Shown here: positions 1,542-43,356 of the stretch, in pieces | How the letters are laid out: every line of letters starts with the position of its first letter | How positions within the stretch are numbered: the stretch's first letter is position 1 | DNA from: Patescibacteria group bacterium | GTDB taxonomy: Bacteria > Patescibacteriota > Patescibacteriia > UBA1558 > GWA2-36-10 | Length of the DNA stretch: 64,000 nt | Reading direction: 5' to 3' | NCBI GenBank assembly: GCA_041650755.1 | Contig: JBAZKN010000001.1 | Location: forward strand, 136,080 to 200,079 | Program-made: the position numbers and the translations under genes | The notes under the pieces: model-generated | Database searches by the model: none | Told to the model about the DNA's origin: nothing | The model's input: only the letters and a program-made list of their open reading frames with translations

Positions 1542-4313
1542 ATGGGAATTTTGCAGAAGATATTTGGCGATGCCAATCAAAAATACATCGACAGCCTCAA
1601 GCCTCTAGTCAAACAAATCAATGACCTGGAGCCGACTTTGGAAAAATTATCCGATCAGGAGCTCAAAGAAAAAAGCTTGGCTCTAAAAGCAGAGGTACAG
1701 GCCGGTAAAAATCTGGATGATGTCCTGGTGTCGGCTTTTGCTTTGGTTCGAGAAGCAGCCAAACGCACCCTCAAACTGCGCCATTTTGATGTCCAACTTC
1801 TTGGTGGCATAGTATTGCATCGCGGCCAGATTGCTGAAATGAAAACCGGTGAAGGCAAAACCTTGACTGCGCCACTGGCCCTTTATCTCAATGCTTTGTC
1901 AGGCAAAGGCGCTCACTTAGTAACAGTTAATGACTATTTGGCTAAGCGCGACGCTACTTGGATGGGCCAAATTTATCATTTTTTGGGCTTAACAACGGCC
2001 GCCATCCAGCACGAGGCTTCTTTTATCTATGATCCGACTCATACTGGCGAACAAAAAGATGAATTGCGTGATCGGGGCGTCAAAGTAGTCATGGATTATC
2101 TACGGCCAGTCACTCGCCAAGAAGCCTATAGCGCTGATATTACCTATGGCACCAACAATGAGTTTGGTTTTGACTATTTGCGCGACAATATGGCTCAAGA
2201 TGCTACTTATCAAGTGCAGCGCGGTTTGCACTATGCCATTGTCGATGAAGTGGATAGCATTTTGATTGATGAAGCTCGGACGCCTTTGATTATTTCTGCG
2301 CCAGCCGAAGAATCAACCAGTCGCTATCAACAATTTGCTCTACTAATAAGCAATCTGCAAGAAAATACCGATTATAATATTGATGAAAAAATGAAGGCCG
2401 CCACCCTGACTGAAGAGGGCATCAAAAAGATGGAAAAGCTCCTGGGTGTCGATAATATTTATGAAAGCCACGGCTTGGACATAGTCCATCATCTTGAGCA
2501 GGCCTTGCGAGCCAAGACTTTGTTCATTCGCGATCGCGACTATATCGTACGCGATAACGAAGTAATCATCATCGATGAATTTACCGGCCGGATGATGCCC
2601 GGGCGCAGATACAGTGAAGGCTTGCATCAGGCTATTGAGGCCAAAGAAAATGTGGAAGTGCAAAGAGAAAGTATGACTTTAGCTACCATTACTTTCCAGA
2701 ATTATTTTAGGATGTATGAAAAACTTGCTGGTATGACTGGTACAGCGGCTACTGAAGCCGAGGAAATGGCCAAAATTTATAATTTAGATGTCACTGTCGT
2801 CCCAACCAACAAGCCATTTATCAGGGCCGATCTAAAAGACAGAGTCTATAAAAATGAACGCGGCAAATACAAAGCCATTGTCCAAGAAATAGAAACTTTG
2901 CACAAAAAAGGTCAGCCGGTTTTGGTTGGCACTATTTCCATAGAAAAAAATGAGCTCCTGGGCTCATACTTAGAAAAGGCCGGTATACCTTTCCAACTCT
3001 TGAATGCAAAATTCCACGAAAAAGAAGCTGAAATCATCGCTCAAGCCGGCCGCAAAGGAGCAGTCACCATTGCCACCAATATGGCTGGACGTGGCGTTGA
3101 CATCATCTTAGGCGGTGCACCGTTTAATCAAGCTTCCTACGAGGAAATAAAGGCTTTAGGCGGCCTGCATATCCTGGGCACCGAGCGACATGAGTCACGT
3201 CGCATTGATAATCAGCTAAGAGGTCGAGCTGGCCGTCAAGGCGATCCGGGCTCTTCTCAATTTTATATTTCCATGGAAGATGACCTGATGCGCATATTTG
3301 GTTCGGAACGCATGAAAGGCATGATGGAGCGCCTGGGCGTACCAGATGACATGCCAATAGAAAATCAGCTGATTTCCAATTCCATTGAATCTGCCCAAAA
3401 GAAAGTGGAGGGCCATAACTTTGATATCCGCAAACACTTAGTAGAGTATGATGATGTTATTAATAAACACCGTCAGGTAATCTACAAACTGCGGCAAAAT
3501 ATCCTGGATATTTTTAGGGAAAAATCCGATAAGCCTGCCGAACAATCAAGCCAGGACATTATTCTTGATTATGTAAACCAGGAAATTCAAAATGTGATTT
3601 CTTTTCACACTTTGAGTCAAAAAAATGTCGGTGATTTTAATCCCAAAGAAATCATTGAAACTATAAAATCTATTTTCCCTTTGAGCACGGATGAGGAAAA
3701 CAAAGTCCTAGAGCTTTTGGATAATAACAAAAAAAATAATTCACATGCTGAGCGCAGCGAAGTGATTGATTATCTGGACAGTCTGGCTAAAAATAAATAT
3801 GAAATTTTAGAAAAAGAAATAAATAGCCAGGTGACTTTGGAAAACTCAGCTTGGACGCCGATGCAGATGATCGAACGCGGGATTATGCTGCGCAGCATCG
3901 ACACGCTCTGGGTGGAGCATCTGACCTCTATGGACAAACTGCGCACCGGCATCGGTCTGCAAGGCTATGGCCAGCGCGATCCGCTGGTAGAGTACAAGCG
4001 CGAGGCTTTTGGCTTATTTAATACTTTGATGGCTGCCATTCGCCAGCAAATAGTCTATTCTGTGTACAAGATTGGCATTGCCCGCAAAATGGCCGCTCCT
4101 GGACAACAAAGACAGCGCCAGTTTACTGAGCAAAAAGCCGGCTTCCAGCCATTCCAAAAAGAAGTAAAGGACAGAGAGCAGGCTAATCAAATATTGCCAT
4201 CGAAGCCCAGAGATGCTTCTGGGCACAAGATAGGCCGCAATGATCCTTGTCCTTGTGGAGCTAAGACAAAAGACGGTATGCCAATAAAATATAAGAATTG
4301 CCATGGAAAATAA
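1542..4313 (+). CDS. secA: preprotein translocase ATPase SecA
   Basis: 923 aa, DEAD-like motor motifs, C-terminal zinc-binding CPCGAK...C. Confidence 0.95.
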   Translation: MGILQKIFGDANQKYIDSLKPLVKQINDLEPTLEKLSDQELKEKSLALKAEVQAGKNLDDVLVSAFALVREAAKRTLKLRHFDVQLLGGIVLHRGQIAEMKTGEGKTLTAPLALYLNALSGKGAHLVTVNDYLAKRDATWMGQIYHFLGLTTAAIQHEASFIYDPTHTGEQKDELRDRGVKVVMDYLRPVTRQEAYSADITYGTNNEFGFDYLRDNMAQDATYQVQRGLHYAIVDEVDSILIDEARTPLIISAPAEESTSRYQQFALLISNLQENTDYNIDEKMKAATLTEEGIKKMEKLLGVDNIYESHGLDIVHHLEQALRAKTLFIRDRDYIVRDNEVIIIDEFTGRMMPGRRYSEGLHQAIEAKENVEVQRESMTLATITFQNYFRMYEKLAGMTGTAATEAEEMAKIYNLDVTVVPTNKPFIRADLKDRVYKNERGKYKAIVQEIETLHKKGQPVLVGTISIEKNELLGSYLEKAGIPFQLLNAKFHEKEAEIIAQAGRKGAVTIATNMAGRGVDIILGGAPFNQASYEEIKALGGLHILGTERHESRRIDNQLRGRAGRQGDPGSSQFYISMEDDLMRIFGSERMKGMMERLGVPDDMPIENQLISNSIESAQKKVEGHNFDIRKHLVEYDDVINKHRQVIYKLRQNILDIFREKSDKPAEQSSQDIILDYVNQEIQNVISFHTLSQKNVGDFNPKEIIETIKSIFPLSTDEENKVLELLDNNKKNNSHAERSEVIDYLDSLAKNKYEILEKEINSQVTLENSAWTPMQMIERGIMLRSIDTLWVEHLTSMDKLRTGIGLQGYGQRDPLVEYKREAFGLFNTLMAAIRQQIVYSVYKIGIARKMAAPGQQRQRQFTEQKAGFQPFQKEVKDREQANQILPSKPRDASGHKIGRNDPCPCGAKTKDGMPIKYKNCHGK

Positions 4314-4318
4314 AAATA

Positions 4319-5056
4319 ATGGAAATAATTGAAACGAAATCATTTAAACTTGCCAGTTTTTCAAAGGGTGATAAAAATTCATCTAAGTTAGCTATTCTAT
4401 TGCCAGGCAGACTCGATACCAAAGATTATATTAATTTCATAAGCCATGCCAATCTACTCTCTAATCATGGTTATTATGTACTAGCCATAGATCCCCCCGG
4501 CACTTGGCAAAGCCCCGGTTCAATTGAATTATTCACTACTACAAATTACATAAGAGCCATAAACGAATTGATAGACTATTTTGGCAATAGGCCAACTTTA
4601 TTATTGGGCCACAGCCGTGGCGCTGCAACCGCTATCCTTGTGAGTGACAATCCATCGGTATTGGGCGTAATTGCAATCATGGCAAATTTTGGCAGTCCGA
4701 CTAATCCCAAACGGGATTCTTTAAAAAAAGGTTTTGAACAGACCTATAGGGATATGCCTCCTGGTAATATCAAAAGCAAAGATCAGATGGAATTCGCCTT
4801 GCCAATTGCTTATTGGGAAGACGGAAAACATTATGATGTAAAGAACTCGTTGATTCATTGTGCAAAACCAAAATTAATAATCTATGGTACAAATGATAAG
4901 TTTACACCTACTCAAGAAGTAGAGGAATTGTACAAAATAATCCCCCAACCAAAAATGTTAAAGAAAATTTATTCCGTTCATGATTACAGATACTCTGTAA
5001 AAGCAATAAAAGAAATTGAAGGTGACATAAATCAATTTTTGAAAAAGTATTTATAA
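4319..5056 (+). CDS. alpha/beta-fold hydrolase
   Basis: GHSRG nucleophile elbow (GxSxG); start placed at MEIIET after secA stop. Confidence 0.6.
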   Translation: MEIIETKSFKLASFSKGDKNSSKLAILLPGRLDTKDYINFISHANLLSNHGYYVLAIDPPGTWQSPGSIELFTTTNYIRAINELIDYFGNRPTLLLGHSRGAATAILVSDNPSVLGVIAIMANFGSPTNPKRDSLKKGFEQTYRDMPPGNIKSKDQMEFALPIAYWEDGKHYDVKNSLIHCAKPKLIIYGTNDKFTPTQEVEELYKIIPQPKMLKKIYSVHDYRYSVKAIKEIEGDINQFLKKYL

Positions 5057-7038: not shown

Positions 7039-7114
7039 GATCCCTCTCATGTTTAGTGTTACTATATTAGCATAATTATAAAAAATAGTCAATGGTTATC
7101 CACAACCACTATAT

Positions 7115-23263: not shown

Positions 23264-24532
23264 TTGTCAATCATGCTTGTCCAAAAACCAAAACAAAATA
23301 GAATAAAATATCTTATCATAAGCTCATTTGTTTTGGGCTTTGTTTTTTTTGTCGGGCATGCCCTAGCCGTAGAGTACACTCTGGATAATCTAGACAATGT
23401 GGAAACCTGGCGTATCAATCAAGATATAAACGATAAGCGCTCTCAAATTCAGGATCTGAATAAACAAGTGGAAATCTACCAAAAAAATATTCAGGCCAAA
23501 CAAAAAGAAATATCCAATCTATCCAGCCAGCTTAGCATTCTTAATAATAATATAGCTAAGATAAACTTAGAAATAAAAACTGCTGAATTAGAGATAGAGA
23601 CCACCAACTTAAAAATAGAAAATGTTCAGCTAAAAATTCAGGCTAAAGAAAGGGAAATATCTGATCAAAAAGAAACGGTAGCTGAAATCCTGCGCACCTT
23701 ACACCGACAACAGCAGCAGAGCAGCGTGATTGAGGTGCTCTTGCTCAACGACAACTTCAGCGGCTTTATGGCCGAGCTCGATAATCTGGAAAAAATACAA
23801 AGTTCGGTAGTCAATCAAGTCAATGACCTAAAAAATATCAAATTGGCCATGACCCAGGATCAGGCGTCTTTGGAGGACAATAAAGATGAGCTGGCTGCTT
23901 TACAAAATATTTTAGAAAATAAAAAAGGCTCTTTAAGCGAGCAAAAAACCGCCAAGGCTTCTATCATCAAGGTGACGCAAGGGCAGGAAAGCAAATTTCA
24001 AACCATGCTTGAACAGGCTAAAAAAGAGCAGGAACAAATTAATAGCGACATTATCTATTTGGAAAAAATTGCTCGCGAAAAACTCAATCGTCAATTACAG
24101 CAAAATCAAGCTGCCGAATCTACCCCGGGCCTGATGTGGCCGGTCAGCTCTCGAGTGATCACTGCCTATTTTCATGATCCCGATTATCCCTATCGTTATA
24201 TTTTTGAACATCCGGCTATTGATATCGCCACTGCCCAGGGCACGGCTGTCAAAGCAGCTGAAACCGGCTATGTAGCCAAAGTCAAAAATGGAGGCAAAAC
24301 TGGCTATAGCTATATCATGATAGTCCATGCCAACAATCTATCCACTGTCTATGGCCATGTCAACCAAATAAATATCAGCGAAGGCCAATTTGTCAGTAAA
24401 GGACAGGTGATTGCTTATTCGGGCGGTATGCCGGGTACTAGTGGCGCCGGGCCATTTTCTACTGGACCGCATCTGCACTTAGAGATTCGCTTAAACGGCC
24501 TGCCAGTCAATCCACTAAACTATTTGCCCTAA
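23264..24532 (+). CDS. coiled-coil M23 family metallopeptidase (EnvC-like murein hydrolase activator)
   Basis: N-terminal TM, long coiled coil, C-terminal M23 motif GPHLHLEIR. Confidence 0.7.
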   Translation: MSIMLVQKPKQNRIKYLIISSFVLGFVFFVGHALAVEYTLDNLDNVETWRINQDINDKRSQIQDLNKQVEIYQKNIQAKQKEISNLSSQLSILNNNIAKINLEIKTAELEIETTNLKIENVQLKIQAKEREISDQKETVAEILRTLHRQQQQSSVIEVLLLNDNFSGFMAELDNLEKIQSSVVNQVNDLKNIKLAMTQDQASLEDNKDELAALQNILENKKGSLSEQKTAKASIIKVTQGQESKFQTMLEQAKKEQEQINSDIIYLEKIAREKLNRQLQQNQAAESTPGLMWPVSSRVITAYFHDPDYPYRYIFEHPAIDIATAQGTAVKAAETGYVAKVKNGGKTGYSYIMIVHANNLSTVYGHVNQINISEGQFVSKGQVIAYSGGMPGTSGAGPFSTGPHLHLEIRLNGLPVNPLNYLP

Positions 24533-24551
24533 TTACCCCAAAAAGTTTATT

Positions 24552-24586
24552 TTTCCCTCTCGATTATTGAGAGGGATTTTTGTAAC
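24552..24586 (+). terminator. intrinsic terminator CCCTCTCG-ATTATT-GAGAGGG + T-run
   Basis: Hairpin followed by ATTTTTG after M23 gene. Confidence 0.55.
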
Positions 24587-24860
24587 AAAAAAACGGAGGG
24601 TGCCGTCTAAAGGCCGAAACCTTCACGTACACCCCCCTTAGAGCTTGCTCACACGGACCGATCCCGGCCACAACGTGCCTTGTAGGCATTCGTGCTGCTG
24701 AAACAGCGAGAGGCGTGCCAGCCACTAGGTGGGGGCTTCCCCTGTGTTTCACGACAGCTTGCGTGAACTGGGATCTTCTCCGTGACCCTCCGTGGAGAGC
24801 AGGCAAGCTCTGGAACAATTGGATGAGCTGGGTTTTGGGGCAAATCCAGACCATCACAAA
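24583..24860 (-). ncRNA. GC-rich structured ncRNA candidate (~270 nt), family unresolved (RNase P RNA / 6S / SRP RNA are candidates)
   Basis: ~60% GC block in AT-rich intergenic DNA; 9-bp terminal helix ACGGAGGGT/ACCCTCCGT enclosing ~200 nt of nested hairpins; U7 tract on minus strand after the 3' helix strand; overlapping minus ORFs lack coding signal. Confidence 0.55.
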
Positions 24861-24911
24861 AATAGCCTATCATATATGATATATTTTGTCAACACCTTTT
24901 TGTTTTATTAT

Positions 24912-24945
24912 ATTAAAATAAAAATTGGCTAATATTAGCCAATTT
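24912..24945. terminator. bidirectional terminator: A-run, palindrome TTGGCTAATATTAGCCAA, T-run
   Basis: Perfect 18-bp palindrome flanked by AAAAA and TTTTT; same palindrome recurs at 43334-43351. Confidence 0.5.
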
Positions 24946-25004
24946 TTATATATAACATCTGCAAGGTGGCCACAACCTCGCAGGTGCCCTAATTTTTAAA
25001 CAAA

Positions 25005-25240
25005 AAGAAAAAAGGCTCGGGGTAGGACGGGGTCCAACCCACGAGCCCGGATGGTCGCCTCGACGGAGCCAGGCTTCATGGCCCTACGGCCTCGAATGCG
25101 CCTGAACGGCGCTGGTCATCGAGCATCCAACGGGGATGCGGCCCGAGAGTCGTTCTCATCGGGATCTTGGCTCCAAGTAGGCGCCACCCTCGCCGGGACA
25201 GGGACGTGATACAGGAGCACCAGTCTAGGCCAGGCAATAG
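25005..25240 (-). ncRNA. second GC-rich structured ncRNA candidate (~235 nt) with own promoter and terminator, family unresolved
   Basis: Minus-strand TTGACA-15/16-TATTAT promoter at 25244-25270; multiple GC hairpins; 3' hairpin GGCUCG...CGAGCC followed by UUUUUUCUUUUU. Confidence 0.55.
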
Positions 25241-25243
25241 GTA

Positions 25244-25270
25244 TAATATCATATATAAAAAAATTGTCAA
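25244..25270 (-). promoter_or_regulatory. sigma70-like promoter (minus) TTGACA-15/16-TATTAT driving ncRNA candidate
   Basis: Read directly. Confidence 0.5.
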
Positions 25271-25327
25271 TACTAAAAAACAGCCTGTGGATAAAGGCAA
25301 AAAAATATTTTTTAAAAATAATATGTT

Positions 25328-26284
25328 TTATTGTCTCAAAGGATGAAATTTGGTATGAATTTTTTCAGCATACTTATCAGAGGCATGCACATAGCGAGTA
25401 GTGGTGTCTAGCGACTCATGCCCCAAAAGTATTTGGATAGCAGCCGGATTAGCGCCATTTTCTGCCAAATAAGTCGCAAAGCCATGGCGCAGTGAGTGAG
25501 CGGAAATAGGTATATTGATGCCCAAGAGCTCGCGATAGCGCTTTATCTTGTATTGTAAATAATTAGGCGAGATCCTTTTGGCGCGCTCTGGATTATTACG
25601 ACCGCGATAAGGCACAAACATAAAGGGCGAATTGTCTGTCCGAGTATTGAGATAATTGTGCAAATATTTGATCGAGCGAGGAGTCAGATAAACAAAGCGT
25701 TGTTTTTTTCCCTTACCCATGATATAGATGCGGCCCGAAGCATCTAGCTGTTCTCGGCGCAAGGATAATAATTCGGAAATACGCATGCCAGTAGCAAACA
25801 AGGTCTCAAGCATGGCCCGATTGCGCAACTTGATGTTCTTATCAGTTTCAAATTTTTCTGGTGCTTCGATAATTCTGATGAGCTCGTTCATTTCTGGCAC
25901 TTGGCCGTGTTTTTTTTCGGTCTTTAGGAGCTTGACGGCATCGGCCGAGATCGGTGTTTTATAATCCATGTCCAATAAAAATTTCAAATAGGAACGCAGA
26001 GCGGATAATATTCGATTGATACTAAAACTGGATAATTTCTTACCACCCAAGACTTTGGCGGCTGTCTTACGCGAAGTAGAGGAGAGATAGGCCTTAAACT
26101 TGATTAAAGACCTTTTATCAAGATTTTTGAAATCCGTCTTAATATCTTCGTTCAAAAAATCTTCAAAAGTTTTCAAGTCCCGTTCATAATTATAAACCGT
26201 CTCTAAAGAGTAGTTATTGGATTGAATATTTTCCAAATATTCATCCAAGAGGGGGAGATAGTGCTTGAGTTTGCTTTTTGCCAT
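25328..26284 (-). CDS. tyrosine site-specific recombinase XerC/XerD family
   Basis: LRHGFATYL and GHESLDTTTRYVH catalytic motifs. Confidence 0.85.
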   Translation of the reverse strand: MAKSKLKHYLPLLDEYLENIQSNNYSLETVYNYERDLKTFEDFLNEDIKTDFKNLDKRSLIKFKAYLSSTSRKTAAKVLGGKKLSSFSINRILSALRSYLKFLLDMDYKTPISADAVKLLKTEKKHGQVPEMNELIRIIEAPEKFETDKNIKLRNRAMLETLFATGMRISELLSLRREQLDASGRIYIMGKGKKQRFVYLTPRSIKYLHNYLNTRTDNSPFMFVPYRGRNNPERAKRISPNYLQYKIKRYRELLGINIPISAHSLRHGFATYLAENGANPAAIQILLGHESLDTTTRYVHASDKYAEKIHTKFHPLRQ

Positions 26285-43241: not shown

Positions 43242-43247
43242 CGATTT

Positions 43248-43303
43248 ATGGCGTATGGCATATAGCTTATGGCATATAGCTTATGGCATATGGACAATGG
43301 GCA
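43248..43303. repeat. heptad tandem repeat (CCATAWG/CTATATG)n immediately upstream of infA promoter -35
   Basis: GGCGTATGGCATATAGCTTATGGCATATAGCTTATGGCATATGGAC read directly. Confidence 0.65.
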
Positions 43304-43329
43304 TTAATTAAATTACGAATTTTGGTTTA

Positions 43330-43356
43330 TATTTTGGCTAATATTAGCCAATAAAT
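43330..43356. terminator. palindrome TTGGCTAATATTAGCCAA (second copy) overlapping murB stop; probable terminator
   Basis: Identical 18-bp palindrome to 24917-24934. Confidence 0.45.

Follow-up and report, generated by a model that had tools for sequence, protein, structure and literature searches.

Between the gene of an M23 peptidase and xerC, in a 64-kb stretch of DNA from a Patescibacteria group bacterium (contig JBAZKN010000001.1; hereafter the window, meaning the whole stretch), lie two blocks of GC-rich DNA, and the question raised by this locus is what they encode. We call them b1 (on the M23 side) and b2 (on the xerC side). As an earlier note had reported, they stand out by composition, with a GC content of 0.59 at 24591-24830 and 0.63 at 25001-25240, compared with 0.395 for the window as a whole. 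No other GC-rich stretch of the 64 kb is as long as either of them, and the gap that holds them is, with crude gene calls, both the longest intergenic region of the window and the sole GC-rich one. The same note took them for two loci of structured non-coding RNA (ncRNA), both read from the minus strand and both having a promoter and a terminator. This core claim is borne out, with fold z-scores of -6.7 (b2) and -3.9 (b1) and with covariation of b1 in four homologues. The blocks are, in our judgement, probably two independent, lineage-specific small RNA (sRNA) genes that would act in trans, lodged in a hypervariable gap near what looks like the replication terminus.

The comparison drew on xerC loci, 69 of them taken from species-representative genomes and 59 out of metagenomes, together with eight contigs (L131-L138) that represent seven of the closest xerC proteins; loci are denoted below by such L numbers. 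The closest is L131 (GCA_964591505.1), whose xerC is 92% identical to that of the window. For b1, the minus-strand promoter TTGACA...TAGGCT suggested earlier was found with TG ahead of its -10 hexamer, but was not called by our consensus scan, because TAGGCT agrees with TATAAT at only 3 of 6 positions. The b1 terminator-like site (24608..24591) is followed on the minus strand by U7, the U-run that had been noted after the 3' helix strand. The fold is more stable than expected on the minus strand (z = -3.91, against -2.56 on the plus strand). L131 carries a b1 homologue at the equivalent position (nhmmer, E = 4e-15), and RNAalifold on these two sequences only gave 68 pairs, ten of them with compensatory double changes. 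The covariance model built from the window and L131 sequences then matched gap RNAs in L004 (E = 3e-10), L003 (6e-6) and L077 (7.5e-5). In the five-sequence alignment, 97.7% of the cells of the 68 pairs are paired and 35 of the 68 show double-sided changes, whereas a control in which the partners were slid by 1-3 columns had about 40% of cells paired and 4-6 double-change pairs; these pairing statistics were reached by none of 500 shuffles. Some of the aligned pairs are G-U; read from the opposite strand they would become A-C mismatches, which supports the minus strand. A promoter layout of TTGACAA-spacer-TGnTAnnnT, read by eye, precedes all five b1-type genes (window, L131, L003, L004 and L077). 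A profile hidden Markov model of the five-sequence alignment found no additional members, and the b1 model, run with filters off on L132, L133, L137 and L020, returned noise only. On this comparative evidence b1 is a real structured RNA family, albeit a small one, and what its members conserve is the fold more than the sequence.

The predicted architecture of b1 begins with a 5' hairpin of nine pairs, all covarying, whose apical loop is C-rich (GCCCC or UCCC in the window b1 and its L131 homologue), followed by an AAUUGU-like linker. A long closing helix, made of GAGCUUGC with GCAAGCUC, CACGGA with UCCGUG and GAUCCC with GGGAUC, encloses several inner hairpins, and the 3' part is a long terminator hairpin with a nested UUCG-type hairpin, ending in U7. 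The second and third of these pairings, CACGGA (24652) with TCCGTG (24779) and GATCCC (24660) with GGGATC (24770), had already been described, and they carry compensatory changes in the homologues. The 9-bp terminal helix of ACGGAGGGT and ACCCTCCGT described with them is another matter. As we read the alignment, its pairing is broken in L131 (CGGAUGGAC against ACCCUCGUU) and is not conserved, and the two 9-mers actually lie at 24593-24601 and 24785-24793, not at 24591-24599 and 24797-24805. In the conserved fold ACCCUCC pairs locally with GGGGGGUG inside the terminator hairpin, and in L131 and the window alike ACCCUC pairs locally with GGGGGUG. We treat the 9-bp helix as coincidental.

For b2, a strong fold goes with fast evolution. 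Its minus-strand promoter, proposed earlier as TTGACA-15/16-TATTAT, is confirmed with the spacer settled at 16, and the proposed hairpin and U-run terminator is likewise confirmed (25048..25014, then U6CU5). Folding gave z = -6.74 for the minus strand and -3.68 for the plus strand, and no shuffled sequence out of 200 reached an equally stable fold. In the predicted structure a UCCU loop caps a 5' hairpin domain, and a long helix closes the central domain, which is multi-branched. Blastn and nhmmer found no homologue of b2 in about 130 syntenic loci. In five loci (the window, L131, L005 [= L073], L007 and L011) the promoters (TTGACR-N16-TATTAT or TAGCAT) are nevertheless nearly identical, and the b2-type RNAs share about 35 nt at the 5' end, with the motif GGCCU..GA..GGUGC. 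The bodies of these b2-type RNAs differ, being rods of about 150 nt in L005, L007 and L011 and multi-branched in the window and L131, and no convincing common fold emerged for the b2-type 5' regions or for b2 and the b2-like RNA of L131.

All five b2-type promoters have the perfect DnaA-box consensus TTATCCACA, always in one orientation and 9-15 nt ahead of the -35 element, and L133 has a one-mismatch variant, TTATCCGCA, about 20 nt upstream. Across all loci DnaA boxes are not enriched in the gap (0.052 per kb inside, 0.058 per kb outside), and the box is thus a property of the b2-type promoter. Its conservation suggests that promoters of this type may respond to DnaA. Further perfect DnaA boxes occur at positions 7096 and 20376 of the window.

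The gap itself lies at a stable address with unstable contents. The order serS-alr-ftsQ-xerC is kept among the relatives and the next gene past the gap is usually convergent. In the 88 loci compared, the gap behind xerC measures anything from 8 to 1606 nt, and in 32 of them it has a block that is GC-rich relative to its locus. Read by eye, the gap holds unrelated cassettes of promoter, RNA and terminator, small open reading frames (ORFs), or a terminator alone (L006); unrelated RNAs replace b1 and b2 in species whose xerC is 76-87% identical. When b1, b2 and six other gap RNAs were searched by blastn and nhmmer against 138 related loci, the only links were those between b1 and L131, among L005, L007 and L011, and between L003 and L004. 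The cassettes are listed with the other features in the table. In L007 an extra GC-rich element of about 160 nt (L007:4991-5149), which has no homologue in the other loci, lies between xerC and the b2-type RNA. Small ORFs with a ribosome-binding site occur on the opposite strand of the gap in L010, L014-16, L018, L025, L028, L032 and L033. They include short membrane proteins, a Cys-rich ORF of 47 aa (L025) and, in Magasanikbacteria-type loci, short basic proline-rich peptides, and some match the RNA blocks in GC richness.

Table. Features of the xerC/M23 gap and its neighbours in the window, and RNA cassettes at the same place in related loci.
Feature	Position	Strand	Basis and remarks
b1 RNA gene, ~272 nt	24586..24857 (from ~24857 to 24586)	-	promoter, terminator, predicted fold, homologues
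b1 promoter	24864..24892	-	TTGACA (24892..24887), 17-nt spacer, extended -10 TGATAGGCT; hexamer TAGGCT 24869..24864, TG-A ahead
b2 RNA gene, ~229 nt	25008..25236 (from ~25236 to 25008)	-	promoter, terminator, predicted fold
b2 promoter	25243..25270	-	TTGACA, 16-nt spacer, TG-n-TATTAT; 11/12 consensus matches plus TG
DnaA-box consensus TTATCCACA, perfect	25286..25294	-	15 nt upstream of b2 -35
Extra GC hairpin CTGCGAGGTTGTGGCCACCTTGCAG without U-run	24959..24983	-	terminator-like site; between b2 terminator and palindrome
Palindrome	24918..24949	.	perfect 28-bp AAAAATTGGCT-AATATT-AGCCAATTTTT at 24922-24949; core GGCTAATATTAGCC
M23 intrinsic terminator	24554..24576	+	terminator-like site scan; abuts b1 3' end
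M23 peptidase gene	23264..24532	+	Pfam Peptidase_M23; convergent with b1
xerC/xerD-type tyrosine recombinase gene	25328..26284	-	Pfam Phage_integrase and SAM-like domain; same strand as b2, upstream
L131 RNA-X, 290 nt	L131:2846-3135		fold z = -5.5
L132 cassette, 190 nt	L132:1452-1645		
L134 cassette	L134:~3600-3750		resembles L136 by eye; nhmmer does not link them
L136 cassettes	L136:~4130-4260, ~4900-5030		resemble L134 by eye only
L137 cassette, ~300 nt	L137:~3540-3840		
L020 cassette, ~440 nt	L020:4991-5430		
L005/L007/L011 cassettes, ~150 nt			b2-type rods

The earlier note had left open whether one or both RNAs are housekeeping RNAs (rnpB, ffs, ssrS) or novel. RNAs of Candidate Phyla Radiation (CPR) bacteria can be unusual, and the blocks are GC-rich and strongly structured, like the housekeeping RNAs of AT-rich genomes, but we consider it highly improbable that either is a divergent RNase P, signal recognition particle (SRP), 6S or transfer-messenger RNA (tmRNA) missed by the Rfam models. 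At the gathering score Rfam 15 had no match in the whole window (1-64000) or in 17 related loci (126 kb). At E ≤ 10 with lax filters over 24400-25450 it matched neither block, giving only chance matches in the AT-rich spacer and the end of the M23 gene, and the L131 gap was also blank at such lax cut-offs (E ≤ 10 or E ≤ 1). Among the cassettes, those of L005, L007, L011, L020 and L131 were scanned and have no Rfam match. RNase P RNA (RNaseP_bact_a/b) is thereby rejected, b1 and b2 being moreover hardly recognisable across relatives; the RNase P-like strings noted earlier have no covariance-model support, and the one that resembles CR-I, UCCGGGCUC, is a strand of the b2 terminator stem. ARAGORN found no tRNA or tmRNA gene in the window and there was no Rfam tmRNA match, in agreement with the earlier failure to see signs of tmRNA (SsrA). 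For SRP RNA there was no match at E ≤ 10, and the Alu-like GGUGC...CCUGUA string of b2 has not been retained by its counterparts of the b2 type in L005, L007 and L011. For 6S RNA there was no Rfam match either, and the predicted folds, minimum-energy and consensus alike, branch several times and lack the rod shape and central bubble of 6S. The turnover between species points the same way: replacement by unrelated RNAs at 76-87% xerC identity, and an empty gap in some relatives (L006), ill fit an essential universal RNA, and RNAs replaced between species whose xerC is 76-92% identical are unlike housekeeping RNAs. Judged by these searches, b1 and b2 are not RNase P, SRP, 6S or tmRNA, and are candidate new families, absent from Rfam 15, of the familiar orphan-sRNA kind; they are novel in the sense of unclassified lineage-specific sRNA families and not beyond it. 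The earlier note had named two observations that would together speak against its RNA loci, and while the lack of any Rfam match is what we found, the lack of covariation is not, b1 clearly covarying. It had seen no credible ORF either, and we find small proteins, on either strand, barely credible as the product of the blocks. Mechanical ORFs of 97, 74, 74, 52 and 54 aa do overlap them, and the same gap in other species carries ORFs with ribosome-binding sites on the opposite strand, some of them GC-rich, but the five ORFs had no Pfam match, no Shine-Dalgarno sequence was seen before the candidate starts, and the gene callers of the source assemblies called nothing within either block. The 97-aa ORF is not present in the b1 homologue of L131, from which b1 is separated by alignment gaps of 4, 1, 16 and 1 nt; these sizes are not multiples of three and are incompatible with a conserved reading frame, and the substitutions preserve base pairs, not codons. 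Decaying foreign DNA, with promoter-like and terminator-like strings arising by chance and without function, would account for the high GC relative to the host and for the rapid turnover between species. This too is very unlikely, since the base-pair-preserving substitutions in b1 indicate selection on structure, the promoter architecture is conserved, and the blocks show neither similarity to phage and plasmid records nor remnants of protein domains.

The surroundings bear on how the gap may have been filled. Locally the genes run gltX (+), the M23 peptidase gene (+), the gap (24533-25327), xerC (-), an ftsQ-like POTRA gene, alr and serS. Left of about 24.9 kb the plus strand carries 21 of 25 genes, and right of it the minus strand carries all 42; GC skew passes at the gap from positive on the left to consistently negative on the right. 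Within the 64 kb covered, this flip of gene orientation together with the skew switch looks like a replication-terminus signature. The space between b1 and b2 contains a perfect 28-bp palindrome with the 11+6+11 geometry of dif-type arms and centre, at the skew and orientation switch of the window, where a dif site would be expected. Such a terminus signature beside a xer gene makes a dif-like role attractive. The palindrome is not single-copy, however: a near-identical copy ends the murB gene, at 43336 (43328-43349), and related loci have further sites like it. The core GGCTAATATTAGCC stands 6-34 nt after the xerC stop in L003, L004, L009, L012, L020, L025, L132, L133 and L137, and deeper in the gap in L013, L017, L131 (L131:3401-3430) and the window. 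Between loci the left arm and the core are kept, and changes in the right arm go uncompensated, a pattern that favours a DNA site over an RNA hairpin; in loci of Magasanikbacteria type, by contrast, the hairpin behind xerC does covary and is terminator-like. The palindrome is AT-rich with A and T runs on its flanks, and could thus be no more than a bidirectional terminator. Other possible roles are those of a site of dif-like geometry that binds a protein, an operator, or an element resembling repetitive extragenic palindromes (REP).

Two further explanations concern the origin of the RNAs. For b2, no terminator or hairpin was found between the xerC stop (25328) and the RNA, so that some xerC transcripts probably read into b2, and relatives without a b2-type RNA have the palindrome right after the xerC stop, at the position of a terminator. 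It might be argued that b2 is mainly a long structured 3' untranslated region (3' UTR) of xerC, possibly processed to an sRNA, the b2 terminator being that of xerC. We think this unlikely as the main account, given the near-consensus extended -10 promoter directly ahead of b2, kept with its DnaA box in five species, and it does not apply to b1, which three hairpins separate from b2. sRNAs of the 3'-UTR type with their own internal promoter are a known class, so the two views of b2 are not exclusive, and b2 may be a 3'-UTR-type sRNA with a promoter of its own. One might also speculate that Xer recombination at the 28-bp palindrome moves small modules with the RNA genes as their cargo, in the manner of integrative mobile elements exploiting Xer (IMEX) and of pdif modules. 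The gap would then be an Xer-serviced cassette site at the CPR terminus, with the palindrome as its dif-like site and with RNA and small-ORF cassettes gained, lost and exchanged, an idea to which we give little credence. It would also be a chromosomal analogue of pdif modules and IMEX elements with RNA cargo, its b2-type cassettes wired to DnaA, which seems just as doubtful to us. Movement by Xer would explain why the gap beside xerC differs species by species, and it agrees with a palindrome of this geometry placed between b1 and b2 where orientation and GC skew converge, with its degenerate, uncompensated right arm, and with its position, in at least nine genomes, behind the xerC stop. In L131, RNA-X and the b2-like RNA sit between two copies, a degenerate one after xerC and a perfect one 620 nt beyond it, and in L009 two copies enclose a module of 1.1 kb. 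On the other hand, the copy at the murB end lies 18 kb away and more similar sites exist in related loci, neither RNA gene has a flanking duplicate in the window, and intergenic regions that are convergent or close to the terminus vary anyway. On balance we regard transport of the RNA genes by Xer as decidedly unlikely.

We return to two independent trans-acting sRNA genes as the preferred reading, against which several points must be set. The ends, abundance and transcription of both RNAs are read from sequence signals only. The alignment behind the b1 covariation counts was fitted to the model and has only five members, of which L003 and L004 are near-duplicates and L077 aligns mainly at its ends, and the -10 hexamer of b1 is weak enough to escape a consensus scan. 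The fold of b2 comes from thermodynamics alone, L131 sharing no convincing structure past the 5' end, and with nothing to stop transcription from xerC b2 could be largely a 3'-UTR product. The modes of action proposed below are guesses by analogy.

In the preferred reading each RNA would have a separate promoter of the sigma-70 type, with an extended -10, and would stop at an intrinsic terminator, and b1 and b2 would be lineage-specific accessory sRNAs of the gap between the convergent xerC and M23 genes. The M23 terminator sits directly past the b1 3' end, so the convergent M23 and b1 transcripts need not overlap. A cis-regulatory leader or riboswitch was considered and rejected: downstream of b2 comes b1, and downstream of b1 the 3' end of the convergent M23 gene. 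As no gene on the same strand follows either RNA, neither is a leader or riboswitch, and both would act in trans rather than in cis. The strong GC enrichment and the keeping of b1 pairing over sequence suggest that shape matters, as in a protein-binding or scaffold RNA, more than simple antisense. The most plausible role for b1 would be that of a structured RNA that binds protein or serves as a scaffold, with possible base pairing by the C-rich loop at the tip of its 5' hairpin. The C/U-rich apical loops (UCCU in b2, GCCCC or UCCC in b1 types) could pair with purine-rich mRNA sites. The energy of a full-length b1-b2 duplex was no better than that of shuffles and is uninformative.

As to known systems, both RNAs have the promoter and the terminator of an independent sRNA gene, to which b1 adds covariation. 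They resemble the free-standing and 3'-UTR sRNAs, with their sigma-70 promoters and intrinsic terminators, such as the DapZ/MicL-type 3'-UTR sRNAs and staphylococcal RsaE and RNAIII with their C-rich loops: the cassette of promoter and terminator, the lack of a downstream gene, the position of b2 behind xerC without a terminator and the C/U-rich loops are all shared. Compared with these, b1 and b2 are much longer, more GC-rich and more structured, have no sequence homology to them and offer no conserved single-stranded seed that we could identify. With 6S RNA (SsrS) they share an abundant-looking promoter, a length of a few hundred nt and, in b1, a long closing helix from distant segments, but their folds are multi-branched, Rfam gives no 6S match, and they are not conserved across related species. 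They are also like the candidates from GC-rich intergenic regions (GC-IGR) in the GC-IGR/DIMPL work of the Breaker laboratory (PMC11109978, PMC8723152) in occupying a long GC-rich gap of an AT-rich genome with a stable fold and covariation, and amount in essence to a GC-IGR find made by hand, though no Rfam 15 family matches them. The 50-genome GC-IGR paper does not mention xer, M23 or Patescibacteria, and describes typical sRNAs as having minimal secondary structure, whereas b1 and b2 are heavily structured yet free-standing. Our literature searches found nothing relevant on ncRNAs of Patescibacteria/CPR bacteria, nor on RNA-guided tyrosine recombinases.

Patescibacteria (CPR bacteria) have tiny genomes, are largely uncultivated and lead episymbiotic lifestyles. 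The window, which is also part of ENA contig k141_2241731 (ERZ27247363) and recurs in Logan SRR8542065, comes from a Komeilibacteria-like representative of this group. The nearest relatives of the window xerC are metagenome-assembled genomes labelled Komeilibacteria, Parcubacteria or Patescibacteria, and a metagenome scan with xerC found no relative nearer than those of the comparison set. For such organisms the locus yields one well-supported candidate for a new structured RNA family (b1) and one strongly folded orphan RNA (b2), at a conserved address (xerC and M23 gene convergent upon it) where related species keep different RNA cassettes, and it may serve as an entry point to the turnover of sRNA repertoires in reduced genomes. 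Should the RNAs prove to be ordinary lineage-specific regulators, they would be a modest addition to the catalogues of RNA families.

The DnaA box and the dif-like palindrome would, in addition, touch on control of replication and the cell cycle and on chromosome dimer resolution in CPR bacteria. dif sites adjoin single Xer recombinase genes (XerS/difSL, XerH/difH), and IMEX and pdif modules exploit dif sites. It is the palindrome, not the RNAs, that is alike here, by its 28 bp in an 11+6+11 arrangement, its place beside xer at the apparent terminus, its one degenerate arm among relatives and its variable flanks; unlike dif, it has more than one copy in 64 kb, and the window palindrome is fully symmetrical, centre included. 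Near the second copy, an infA-containing operon of ribosomal-protein type has a promoter whose -35 element is immediately preceded by three tandem repeats of about 14 nt (TATGGCATATAGCT-like; 43245-43300), and these repeats could be an operator or iteron-like.

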